DNA of 63,958 bases, filler included, from Reclinomonas americana ATCC 50394 (GCA_048213135.1; 7 parts of 3 records of this genome joined end to end with filler, not necessarily neighbours in it), one strand, 5' to 3'. Numbered from the whole stretch's first letter, positions 1 to 62,748 are shown. Program-made: numbers and translations. Notes: generated by a model from the letters alone, not told the origin.

Positions 1-3000
1 AAAACAGAGTATCGCCGTGAATTTGTGCTTCGCCAAGATCACCGGCATGTGCTGCTGGTGGGCCACATGATGTCGACCAACTTGAAAGAGTTCTTCAGAG
101 AGTTCTTCCACTCGGCGCACGTGGTGGAGAACGTGCAAATCGCCGTGCTGAATCCTGAACCTCCATCCACCGAAGTGCTGGCGGTGAGTGACGAACTTGC
201 GGTGCTGGACTCGTTGCTCCTTCCTTTCTCACTCCCACCTCCCCGCAGCTGATGCGCTCGTCGGAGGTGGCCGGCCGTGTGCAATACATATCAGGCTATG
301 CACTGCTGCGCGATGATCTTGTACGTGCCAAGGCCGCGGCGGCCACCGGCGCATTTGTGTTGGCCGATCGCCTGGCAGAGGACGGTGATAAGCAAGACGC
401 CACGACTTTCCTGCGAGTGGCCTCCATTCGCGGAAATAACGACTGGTGTCCTATTTACGCGCAAGTGATTCGACCGGAAAACAAGGTGCAGCAGCTGCGG
501 CGCGAGTATGATGATGGGCTCTGTGTTCGTGTGTGCTGACTGTCAGTGTCCGCAGAAACATCTCGAGTCGGCTGGCGCGACGCACGTGGTGTGCACGACA
601 ACGATGAAACTGGTGCGCANNNNNNNNNNNNNNNNNNNNNNNNNNNNNNNNNNNNNNNNNNNNNNNNNNNNNNNNNNNNNNNNNNNNNNNNNNNNNNNNN
701 NNNNNNNNNNNNNNNNNNNNNNNNNNNNNNNNNNNNNNNNNNNNNNNNNNNNNNNNNNNNNNNNNNNNNNNNNNNNNNNNNNNNNNNNNNNNNNNNNNNN
801 NNNNNNNNNNNNNNNNNNNNNNNNNNNNNNNNNNNNNNNNNNNNNNNNNNNNNNNNNNNNNNNNNNNNNNNNNNNNNNNNNNNNNNNNNNNNNNNNNNNN
901 NNNNNNNNNNNNNNNNNNNNNNNNNNNNNNNTTAGTTCACGAATCGAGCGTGCCTGATGGCCATGCTACTCACTGTTGCGAAAACCACACAGAATGTGCT
1001 GGCACGCAGCTGCTTGGTTCCTGGGTTTGCCGTCTTCCTCAACAACCTCATGCGCAACGAGCTTCCGTTCAAGTCGTTCACCATGGAAGAGTGGCCTGCC
1101 GAATACTGTTGCGTCCATATGACACCGTCGTGCACACACACTGGCGACTCACCGCTGCGTCTCGGCAGGTCACGGTGCCGCGCATGAAATCTACACAACC
1201 GTTCTACCAAAGACCATGGAGGGCGTCACTTTTGCCGAGGCTGCTGCTGTTGCGTGTGTGTATGTTTGCGTGCACAAGTCTCTGAGTGCCTCATATTCGT
1301 GTGTGCCAGTACGTGTATGACAAGTTCAACGCCATTCTGTTCGGCGTGAAAGGCTCCATTCAGGATCCGCGCACTGGCGTCGTGGCCGAGGTACGCGCTG
1401 TGATGCACTTGCAGTTTCACGAATTCAATGGTCACCTGTGTGTGTGTCCTTGCTGCAGCGATCGTTGATTGCACCACCGCCCAAGCTAATTGTGCGAGCT
1501 GGGTTCAAGGCCGTGCTGATCGCGCCCGATGTGACGATTGCTTTGCAGTTGGCTTTCGATTCCGATGCTGAGTGGCTGGCCAGTACGACTACTCGCGTCC
1601 GTGCTCTCGCCAGAAAACTGCGACATGTCACAGCGGATTTGGAGCGGAGACGACAACCGGATCGCGATCGGCGGCAATCTCTTATTCGTCGACCGTCACT
1701 CGACCGGTTGCGGGAGGATGCCAGCGGGGCGTCTGCAGTTTTGCAAACGTCAATGTCGGCCCCACCCCCACTGCCGCCACCGCCTTTGCCACCAAGTGAC
1801 GGTCGGCCTTCGCTTGTGTCACTGGTGTGTCAACGGTGTGCTCCTCCCTACTGTACACCCGGTGCTTATAGTTCACTGCCAGCTGTCGGAGGACAACCTG
1901 AGTGTGCAGAGTCTACAGTCTCGCGAGCCGAGCGAAATCACAGGTTGGACTTTTCCGTGCCTGTGCGCGTACTCACAAGCTCGTTTCGTGCTGAACCGGT
2001 GGACTCGTAGATGCCAACCGCCCACAGTACCTTCAGGTCGCCCACATGTTGCAGCGACATGCCAAGTTTGCCTCGAGGTGCGCTTTCGCGAATTCGTGAG
2101 ATGCTGCACATTCACACTGTTCATTGACAACAACCGAGCAGCGCCGAGTCGGTGCTTTCACGGTATTACATTGGATGTCAGACGCGGTCTCTGGAGAGTG
2201 CCATTCTCGATCGAGTACCTGCCGACATCTCTGGACACATTGTGGTGCGCCTTTCCTGTTTCTCACTGTACATGTCGTCTTGCTTTGTTCTGAAACGATG
2301 CGACCAGGTGTGTGGCCCGTTTGCTGATCTCACCTTCTTTGTCATGCCATTGCGAGCGCGGTACCTGGGGTCCGCCGAGTCTCTCATGGACATTGTGGTT
2401 CTGTATGACCGTGCTCCTACAGGTCAGCCTCGCTGTTCTCCACAGAGTTTCGTGCGCGTTGCTTGCTCACCTGCGTTGTGTGTGTGTGCGTGCGCGCGCG
2501 CAGCCGACGAGTGGGCACCGCTGTCCGCGTTCGAGCGCGTGTGGGTTGTGGTCGGCGACGCTCGCGGTAAGTGTGACGTGGTCACTCGTTGTTGTGCCCG
2601 TGAAGAGTGCCCACGTCGAAATGTGTGCGATGCAGAGCTTGTACACTTGGATCGATGCAATTCACGCTCCGCGCGCACTGTCGTGGTTCGTCGATGCTGT
2701 GCTGCGACTCGGTTATTTCACGGAACGATACTCATTGGTGTGTGCATCAGATTCTCCAACACTCCAAGCGAAGCGTCAGCGACAGTGATGCCGCGGACAC
2801 GACGCTTGACGATTACATGGCCATCATGATCCAGCTGCAGGCGGTGCAGTCGTACTCCAACAAGGTGTCTGTAATAACTGACATTGGTGAGGACCTATGC
2901 AGTGCGTTGTGCTCTCTCCTGCCACTCGCCTCGCTAACAATGAGTGCACAGTTCACGAGTCGAGTTTGGTGTTTCTGCGCCCGCGCTCGCGCCTGGCCAA

Positions 3001-60800: not shown

Positions 60801-62748
60801 TAACTAACCGTCTGCGCATTTGTTGTTGAGCCTACAAACACAGAGCCGACGGTGCCAGCACCCACGGCTGGCGACGACGTCAGCCGGATGCTGCCGCCGT
60901 TGGTGGAGCCAAAGACCGGTGTCGGACGCGTCAGCACCAACTCCATGCCGTCCGTGTCGCCAAACATTACTTGATTGGACAGCGAGCGAATGGACGAGGT
61001 TGACGAGAGCGTCATGCCGCCGTTGACTTGGAGGGAGGATGAGGTGGCCACAGAGCCCACAAAGGTTGTGGCCGCACCCATAGTGATGGCACTAGTATTC
61101 AGCGTGCCAATCGAAATTCGTCCATGAGGACCTCCGCTGCCGGCATTCAGTAGCCTGTAGTACACAATCACAACGGGTGAGATGAGCAGCGGGAGTAAGA
61201 GATTCGGGAGACGGGGGAAAAGCGCAACAGATCGCCGCCCGCCGCCGTTCCATTGGGATTGTTCTGACCGGACAGCGTGGTCGACATGGCACCACCACTG
61301 CCAGCGTATGGCACTCGCGCAAATTCAAAGCCGGCCGAGCCCGAGCCAAATTGCACAACGTTACTGGCCGACGACACCAGCAACGACCCACTTGGAGCAA
61401 CCAGCGACGAGGTTTGTACGACCGAATTGACCAGCTGCAAAAACCAATAAAAGGGGGGCGTGAGACTGGGGTAAGTCCGCAAAGATCCACGCACGCGTGT
61501 ACGCAACGGCGCCCAGGATGGTGGTGGTCGACATGGCGGAGCCAATGGTGACAGTGGTCGCCGTGCCGCCAATGACTACAGTGCCTGCCGAATCCACCGT
61601 GGTTTGCACACGAGACAACGAATCAGTGCGATCCGTGTCGGTGAACGAGCCGAGCGTCAGCCTGCCATGAGAGGCGTTGCCGCGACCAGCACGAATGGTC
61701 AGGTCGGAACCGACTGTGCCGACGGCGGTTTGATCCGGGCGGCGCAGCACAAACGAGGCATCGGTGGGATTGCCGAGCATGAGCTGGAAGTGAAGAACTG
61801 ATGAGTGCGTGGAGAGAGAGAGAGCGTGAGAGAGCGAAATGACAACAAGGCGCGAACCTGAGTCGCAGATCCGACAACGGTCAGCGGCACATCGGCATTG
61901 AGTTGCACACTCGACCCGAACGTGACCGCCTGCGAAAACGAGGCCGACCGCGAGAACGCACTGGGTGCGTCGACCGCTACAGCGCCGGTAGCTACACCAA
62001 GTCGAATCTGCAGTGCGGTTGCGGGGGGCACGCGTGTGAGTCAGCATTCTGCGTGTGTCCAATCAGTGCACACGTGGCAACAAACCGTGCCCGCGGTGTT
62101 CACGGCCAGGCGTACTTCGCCCGTCGTGGTGCCCGCACCACCGTCAATCTCACTGTGAGTGGATGAGGGAAAAAAACGAAATGCGGTCAGCCACCAACGT
62201 GACGCGCTCAACAGCGGTAGGCCGTCATACGAAACATGGAGCCGCCGGCGCTGCCGATCGCACCCTGTCCAATGAAGCGTGTGGCAGTACCCGCCAAATT
62301 GTCGGTTCGTCCGGGGCGAGCCACGATAATTGGTGTCGTGGTGATGCCCAGCACAAGCTGATTGTTGGCAGGCTGCAAACTGATGCCAGACAGGGACGCC
62401 GAGGTCACCGTGGACACTTGTAGCGTACCGGGGACCTGTGTATACGATGCACGCAATGAGTGTACTGCACGATACTGTAGTGGCGGCGGCGGCGGCGGCG
62501 AATCAGCACACCTGCACAGAGTTGGACGCCGATGTTTCCAGCGAGAGTGGACCGCCGGTTGCCGACAGCGTCAACTTGGTTGTGCTGAGCGACAAACTCG
62601 CAGAGGACAGTGGCGTGGTCAGCTGCACCTTGGCAACGTGCACTGCAACAAGGAAGTGAGTAACACTCAAGCGCGGGCGCGCAGCAAAAAGCACAACACA
62701 CACGAACTTGAATCGGTGGTGGCGGCGGAGAAGACGGCATCATTGGAA
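57833..62748 (-). CDS. Giant G/S/T/V-rich beta-repeat (fibre/adhesin-like) protein; fragment, many introns
   Basis: The recurring module LG..P...RP....G....GQ....GG.(I/M).I(D/Q)(A/G)G....G.V.IG....V.IG spans GT-AG-bounded exons. No start or stop is seen. Confidence 0.72.

Follow-up and report, generated by a model that had tools for sequence, protein, structure and literature searches.

Whether introns can routinely begin with a motif in which the key donor guanine stands one place later than usual is the question raised by a window of Reclinomonas americana ATCC 50394 (GCA_048213135.1), the window being the whole stretch of 63,958 bases analysed here. It is a eukaryotic draft with 26 runs of N and about 52% G+C, dense in intron-rich genes, whose introns are mostly 55-130 nucleotides (nt) long, end in CAG and generally carry a CTCAC/CTGAC-like motif about 17 nt 5' of that CAG. 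A sequence-only reading of this DNA had proposed GTTGCG as a second major type of 5' splice site (donor) and had listed 13 such sites with coordinates and strands, all of which are present as described. From sequence, reading frames and protein homology within this one 64-kb window, it was shown that GTTGCG(T/C) truly serves as a 5' splice site, and does so very often, in the genome's ordinary short GT-AG introns; between roughly one quarter and one third of introns begin with GTTGCG(T).

Junctions were placed in two ways, neither of which presupposes a donor motif. In the first, Pfam profile coordinates were obtained for the open frames flanking a junction, and a gap-free continuation of the profile fixed the junction to the codon. 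In the second (donor-neutral alignment), a spliced protein-to-DNA aligner of our own accepted any GT..AG intron and was scored with BLOSUM62 alone; the inputs were 8 NCL, 8 POC1 and 10 BK homologues, and an intron was counted when at least half of the homologues supported it. The resulting pinned set comprised nine GTTGCG donors (four by Pfam and six by alignment, with 1108 in both) and 14 others. A gene finder was also used, combining codon usage, any GT as donor, a bonus for CAG and branch motif and a length prior, with the donor model first flat and then trained. A codon model self-trained on long open reading frames drifted to pyrimidine-rich repeats, and hand-picked conserved exons were substituted. 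Gene-model counts were taken in curated gene intervals, the intron at 56335 being excluded as a duplicate of 55130-55194. These models were noisy: genes were merged, about 36 'other' donors were of no recognisable type and mostly doubtful, and the donor of the Rab gene was misplaced (4573, not 4594) and corrected by homology. The gene-model counts are therefore soft, and the homology-guided fraction given below (6/19) is the safer estimate.

With the flat donor model GTTGCG was the top donor hexamer, found at 13 of 102 introns against a background of 0.92% of GT hexamers (p = 1.4e-11), so that the proposed rank of a major type was borne out whereas 'second' understated it, GTTGCG being the commonest single donor hexamer. 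In the trained gene models it stood at 25 of 116 introns, in agreement with the 'more than 20' counted previously, whereas the product of single-position frequencies, an independence test put forward with the original claim, predicts 1.67. Donor-neutral alignment gave 6 of 19 introns starting with GTTGCG (1108, 1249, 25224, 25939, 28125 and 30486). When gene-model donors were split on T at position +3, as had also been proposed, +6 G accompanied +3 T in 31 of 39 cases vs. 11 of 77 (Fisher p = 5.9e-12), and +3 T disfavoured +5 G (p = 6e-5). The hexamer was present in 72 copies on both strands of the window as compared to 54.1 ± 5.8 in shuffled sequence. In a census independent of model detail, 23 of the 31 copies of the heptamer GTTGCGT on both strands were intron starts, the remainder being four sense 'non-donors', two copies antisense to genes and two outside genes; GTTGCGT is thus almost diagnostic of an intron start. 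Three of the sense copies (5757, 15701 and 43510, +), taken by the gene models as exonic or placed otherwise, are followed some 70-108 nt later by a branch-like motif together with CAG or TAG; these probably mark introns of the same class that the models missed. Donors occurred at 7 of 22 copies of GTTGCGC and at none of the 19 copies of GTTGCGA or GTTGCGG. GGTGCGT was a donor in 6 of 23 copies, and no fewer than four others resemble donors that the models overlooked.

Genes were assigned by Pfam (BK-type channel, Rab, leucine-rich repeat (LRR) proteins, mitochondrial carriers, an NMNAT-like protein, mitochondrial PheRS, RAD51C, rhodanese/O-methyltransferase, NCL-type Na/Ca exchanger, SCO1, a DTW protein and TPR repeats), except for POC1, which was named from its homologues. 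The GTTGCG introns, with the evidence that places each of them, were as follows.

1108..1168 (+): GTTGCGTC intron of 61 nt, BK-like channel; Pfam profile and 9/10 homologues
1249..1309 (+): GTTGCGTG intron of 61 nt, BK-like channel; 5/10 homologues
3351..3416 (+): GTTGCGTG candidate intron of 66 nt; gene model, no homology pin found
4594..4740 (+): GTTGCGTC intron of 147 nt, Rab; Ras profile
5949..6023 (+): GTTGCGCG intron of 75 nt, LRR gene; gene model only, codon score -0.04
10530..10601 (+): GTTGCGTG candidate intron of 72 nt, NMNAT-like; frame, codon score -0.29, unpinned
10798..10870 (+): GTTGCGTG intron of 73 nt, NMNAT-like, followed by G at 10871 and a second intron of 61 nt at 10872-10932; frames, gene model
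19334..19397 (+): GTTGCGTG intron of 64 nt, FHA/Ki-67-like; gene model only
21476..21533 (+): GTTGCGTT intron of 58 nt, RAD51C-like; Rad51 profile
37810..37884 (+): GTTGCGTC intron of 75 nt, gene without assignment; gene model only
46660..46729 (+): GTTGCGTT intron of 70 nt, PAS/cyclase; gene model only
47571..47640 (+): GTTGCGTG intron of 70 nt, PAS/cyclase; gene model only
47905..47965 (+): GTTGCGCT intron of 61 nt, PAS/cyclase; gene model only
56335..56396 (+): GTTGCGTT intron of 62 nt, fibre-repeat gene, inverted duplicate of 55130-55194; gene model, uncounted
12198..12296 (-): GTTGCGCG intron of 99 nt, mitochondrial PheRS; gene model, consistent, unpinned
23761..23818 (-): GTTGCGTT intron of 58 nt, rhodanese/O-methyltransferase; gene model only
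25159..25224 (-): GTTGCGTC intron of 66 nt, NCL-type exchanger; 6/8 homologues
25576..25939 (-): GTTGCGTA intron of 364 nt, NCL; 8/8 homologues
27571..27634 (-): GTTGCGCT intron of 64 nt, NCL; 3/8 homologues and gene model
28059..28125 (-): GTTGCGTG intron of 67 nt, NCL; 7/8 homologues
30423..30486 (-): GTTGCGTG intron of 64 nt, NCL, after the micro-exon CCTGG; 5/8 homologues
32166..32223 (-): GTTGCGTC intron of 58 nt, SCO1; gene model
32337..32398 (-): GTTGCGTC intron of 62 nt, SCO1; gene model, SCO1-SenC positions agree within one
32552..33384 (-): GTTGCGCG intron of 833 nt including a 20-N run, SCO1; SCO1-SenC profile and acceptor
41329..41393 (-): GTTGCGTC intron of 65 nt, DTW-domain gene; DTW profile, downstream side
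55130..55194 (-): GTTGCGTT intron of 65 nt, fibre-repeat gene; gene model, 1/2 paralogue alignments
60250..60323 (-): GTTGCGCT intron of 74 nt, second fibre-like gene; gene model, one paralogue alignment
60554..60614 (-): GTTGCGTT intron of 61 nt, second fibre-like gene; gene model only
61155..61228 (-): GTTGCGCT intron of 74 nt, second fibre-like gene; gene model only
61435..61507 (-): GTTGCGTA intron of 73 nt, second fibre-like gene; gene model only

Seven of the 13 sites listed by the sequence-only reading were fixed by homology, one was anchored from one side, four agree with frame and codon usage only, and one (10798) needs an exon of a single nucleotide. At 1108 the BK_channel_a profile ran on without a gap (Y = 50, split codon = 51, H = 52), and donor-neutral alignment placed the same donor with nine of the ten BK homologues; at 1249 five of the ten did so, and the profile extends to the exon end. 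The Ras profile continued across 4594 (Q = 66, split codon = 67, Y = 68), the Rad51 profile across 21476 (F = 31, split codon C = 32, G = 33) and the SCO1-SenC profile across 33384 (F = 30, split codon T = 31, A = 32), where the acceptor ccttgaccag/CG (the slash marking the cut here and below) yields FGF-T-ACPDICP. The residues by which the junctions in SCO (FGF-T-ACPDIC) and RAD51C (F-C-G) had been fixed were thus continuous in the profiles, and the NCL junction at 25224 was recovered with six of the eight homologues. For the DTW protein at 41393 only the downstream side was anchored, the DTW profile starting at the start of the downstream exon; the upstream exon had no Pfam match.

At the NCL donor 30486 the homologues that place it do so together with a micro-exon of 5 nt (CCTGG, 30487-30491, -), which supplies a conserved Pro-Gly and is flanked by an 83-nt GTGCGT intron and the 64-nt GTTGCG intron; it is backed by five of the eight homologues, whereas three favour one intron of 144 nt. 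The closest named relatives of the NCL protein were amoebozoan (Stygamoeba, Balamuthia, Arcella, Endostelium and Clastostelium). Five metagenome relatives of NCL (L001-L005) were effectively intronless, transcript-like contigs and gave no information on donors; three of them showed one short aligner 'intron' (31, 34 or 123 nt), which we read as alignment gaps.

The candidate introns at 3351 and 10530 are in frame and free of stops, and read-through is possible in principle; their codon scores per codon (-0.25 and -0.29, respectively) are intron-like, the values being -0.12 ± 0.10 for introns and 0.19 ± 0.12 for exons. The support for 37810 came from the gene model alone. The donor at 12296 is consistent with the frame; human mitochondrial PheRS has five extra residues at this junction in PDB alignments, so that the intron may instead start at an in-phase GTGTGT lying 15 nt downstream. 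At 10798 the frame is kept only if the single G at 10871 is an exon of 1 nt between introns of 73 and 61 nt. Both of these short introns (10798-10932, +) carry a branch-like motif and a CAG of their own, and the alternative to the 1-nt exon is one base missing in the draft. The C-terminus of this NMNAT-like protein is, we presume, conserved; PDB searches gave no match there (10851-11021) nor for 3033-3569. Pfam provided no pin for the upstream parts of PheRS and of the DTW gene, the NMNAT C-terminus, most RAD51C exons and the rhodanese exons. A homologue search with the PAS/cyclase gene returned one weak match, and the paralogue alignments of the fibre genes were ambiguous owing to internal repeats.

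GTTGCG donors formed a discrete class, with +3 T, +4 G, +5 C and +6 G near-fixed, +7 T preferred and exons ending in T, A or C. The exon-final base (-1) was G in one of nine pinned GTTGCG donors, the exception being 30486 behind the micro-exon, as compared to 14 of 14 other pinned donors (Fisher p = 1.8e-5); in the gene models the corresponding values were 1/25 and 39/91 (p = 1.2e-4). Exon-side and intron-side consensus were anticorrelated in both sets at these same p-values. The base preceding GTTGCG in the gene models was T in 13 cases, A in 7, C in 4 and G in 1, and the previous description of a mainstream class whose preceding base is usually not G therefore stands. Among the 31 donors grouped as class B, which have +3 T by definition, +4 was G in 26 and A in none, +5 was C in 29 and +7 was T in 24. 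The other pinned donors were loose on the intron side, with +5 G in 8/14 and a +3 purine in 8/14, contrary to the claim that all ordinary donors have +5 G. Homology-pinned donors lacking +5 G, namely AAG/GTGCAG (486, +), AAG/GTCTTT (4880, +) and AAG/GTCCCT (51855, -), show no recognisable motif after the GT and seem to depend on exon-side signals alone.

The variants named alongside GTTGCG fared unevenly. GTTTCG (18025, 48076 and 62235) was found as a donor in gene models only, each time as GTTTCGT after a base other than G and thus in the manner of the GTTGCG class, and GTTACG appeared once, in one gene-model run. The GTTGTG of POC1 was a donor with 8/8 homologues; it follows AAG and thus behaves like the other class. 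As regards candidates that were rejected, sense copies of GCTGCGT, a GC-AG version of the motif, look exonic, and the idea of a sliding core (TGCG at +4) was dropped, such donors sharing -1 G and +5 G with the ordinary type.

As to how these sites are recognised, the reading that we tentatively favour, at a little under an even likelihood, is that the same spliceosome removes both intron classes and that the early recognition helix (U1-type pairing) lies one nucleotide out of register on GTTGCGT. The +1 G would then occupy the slot of the exon -1 G, the +3 U that of the +2 U and the +6 G the key slot of the +5 G, and the catalytic core would still direct cleavage to the sole GU; with one central pair lost, all the remaining positions would have to match, giving a long, near-invariant motif. 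Positions +1 to +7 of GTTGCGT are identical, except for one base, to positions -1 to +6 of GGTGCGT, the best ordinary donor. The standard U1 5' end is ACUUACCU. Counted by hand against the human U1 5' end, from which that of this organism may differ, the shifted register gives four Watson-Crick pairs plus one wobble and the usual register two plus one. The cut at the GU of the motif was set by frame and profile continuity at four sites and by donor-neutral placement at six.

Several points weigh against such a shift. A register with a bulged U yields an equal number of pairs. Standard U1 would place the +5 C found in 29/31 donors opposite a pseudouridine and favours A at +4, yet A was never found there; standard U1 thus fails to account for G and C being fixed at +4 and +5. 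Were the register simply shifted, every ordinary donor type should have a shifted counterpart, and GTTGAG was used zero times vs. 16 gene-model donors starting with GTGAG or GTGCG-like sequence. The shifted register also predicts a preference for A at -1 and no avoidance of G, whereas T was the most frequent base and G the rarest. When GTTGCG was penalised, the gene models reached alternative solutions, at a loss of 1005 nt of coding sequence. All of the results, moreover, come from the single window.

The near-invariant +4 G/+5 C pattern suggests a changed or extra small nuclear RNA (snRNA) partner, in line with the proposal of the sequence-only reading. Taken together, the fixed G+4 and C+5, the absence of GTTGAG and the preference for T with avoidance of G at -1 leave room for a U1 reading the GCG core or for a second U1. 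It is possible, although on balance doubtful, that the U1 5' end of this lineage (or a second U1) has been retuned to the GCG core, so that G/GUGCGU-like and N/GUUGCGU sites would be registers one base apart; a core spliceosomal snRNA would then have co-evolved with the donor class of a quarter to a third of introns. No snRNA was detected in the window with Rfam, at the gathering cut-off or at E <= 1, and so no U1 or U6 gene lies there.

Rather unlikely, in our estimation, is a U1 (or an extra U1 variant) whose changed 5' end is complementary in register to GUUGCGU, which would make GTTGCGT the cognate and strongest donor and the G/GT donors an offset or exon-anchored class. Such a U1 would fit the near-fixed G+4 and C+5 and the absence of A at +4; it would also fit the -1 G found in each of the 14 other pinned donors, which a mismatched +1 G would lead one to expect, and the +3 purine in just 8 of these 14. 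GTTGCGT is, in addition, the commonest and most specific donor (23/31 copies vs. 6/23 for GGTGCGT), although at least four of the six 'non-donor' copies of GGTGCGT look like missed donors, so that this contrast in specificity is overstated. Moreover, hardly any variation of the U1 5' end is known across eukaryotes.

It seems improbable that standard U1 and U6 keep the usual register and accommodate the extra U (+2 or +3) as a bulge. Removal of one T converts GTTGCGT into GTGCGT, the commonest ordinary donor, and the pair count by hand is the equal one already given; bulge registers at +3 (or +2) are documented in human cells (PMC4856993). With a bulged U, however, the -1 G would pair and stay favoured, whereas it was seen in only 1/9 pinned and 1/25 modelled GTTGCG donors vs. 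14/14 others, and the shifted register is preferred over the bulge for this reason.

In their remaining features the GTTGCG introns resembled the other introns. Median length was 65 nt vs. 68 nt, a CAG acceptor was present in 23/23 vs. 40/42, and both classes shared the CTCAC/CTGAC/CTCAT spectrum of branch-like motifs at median distances of 17.5 and 17 nt from the AG. Phases were unbiased (10/6/7), without a deficit of phase 0. The mean longest common substring of intron interiors was 5.98 between GTTGCG introns, 5.89 between +5 G introns and 5.94 between the classes. The matching lengths, acceptors and branch motifs together with unrelated interiors indicate neither a mobile-intron family nor a minor-spliceosome class. 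GTGAGT was observed 22 times antisense within introns, which makes ACTCAC the favoured branch-region word.

That the class belongs to its own minor-spliceosome-like system, whose 5' motif has diverged, is accordingly very improbable. The rigid, long 5' motif and the absence of an exon-side consensus are shared with U12-type introns, including those of Physarum, and the minor system is known to have expanded enormously in this one amoebozoan; even there, however, the U12-type [G/A]TATCCTT is retained (bioRxiv 10.1101/2020.10.12.336362). GTTGCGT is unlike that motif, and its introns differ from the U12 type in having no distinct branch site or phase bias, with branch-like motif, its distance, acceptor and length the same as in the other introns. 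None of the five RTATCCY matches listed coincided with a modelled intron start, and the lone full GTATCCTT match (51360) sits inside an ordinary intron. That the shared start was inherited from a mobile intron family (introners), or is a gene-model artefact or chance, is barely credible and largely refuted here, for although most lengths are uniform (58-75 nt) and the gene models can be driven to alternative placements, the other introns share the same lengths, interiors within the class resemble one another no more closely than interiors compared across classes, the Pfam and donor-neutral placements hold (four and six junctions, with one in both), and the enrichment was obtained without a donor model.

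Other features of the window concern its assembly and gene content. Two near-identical fibre-like repeat genes (NV.WYTD.F; 54512-55754, -, and 55781-57014, +) face each other across a 20-N gap; the inverted duplication may be real or may have arisen in assembly. At 52654-54400 and 57874-62747 (-) two kinds of large repeat protein are encoded. Mitochondrial-carrier fragments on opposite strands (7475-7783, -, and 8605-9114, +) flank a gap of 820 N, and a contig of the scaffold may be inverted there. At 9115-9214 and seven similar places there are 100-base contig linkers made up of 44 N, TTAATTAATTAA and 44 N; introns crossing them have nominal lengths only. One gene model (22608-24356, -) fuses rhodanese-like and class-3 O-methyltransferase domains. 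ARAGORN found no tRNA in the window.

If the commonest and most specific intron start of a genome is read out of register, that genome would offer a natural system for studying the choice of cleavage site independently of U1 pairing, and it would also be suited to asking whether the near-invariant recognition sequences of U1 and U6 co-evolve with their targets. At a practical level, about one in four of this genome's donors would be wrongly placed by gene prediction trained with GT[AG]NGT logos. Full-text literature searches (supplements excluded) found no description of a GTTGCG/GUUGCG donor class nor of a lineage with mainstream shifted-register donors.

Among known systems, the closest are the human shifted-register 5' splice sites, of which GUUAAGU, with an AAG core, is an example. 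Shifted and bulged registers are both established for human U1 (PMC4856993; review PMC9311317), and the shifted-register sites (Roca & Krainer 2009, via the same two sources) are described as atypical. As in the present class, cleavage there takes place at the GU with U1 pairing proposed one position off, +3 is T, the key G comes one place later and the -1 G is dispensable. The class described here differs from them in its frequency, with 6/19 aligned introns and the top hexamer, in its GCG core and in that the -1 G is avoided rather than neutral. The bulge +3/+2 register (Roca et al. 2012, via PMC4856993) likewise involves one extra U with respect to an ordinary donor, but it predicts a retained -1 G, which GTTGCG donors do not show. 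Finally, 5' splice sites have been recognised to fall into two main classes, the U5-type AG//GU and the U6-type //GURAG (PMC9803359, PMC11732430 and the LUC7 paper PMC11842720). The donors of this window resemble them in that exon-side and intron-side strength are anticorrelated, one class being anchored on the exon-final G and the other on a strong intron motif; unlike the U6-type GURAG, however, the motif of the intron-side class reads GUUGCGU in this window (+3 U, +6 G), and the split between the two classes is nearly all-or-none.

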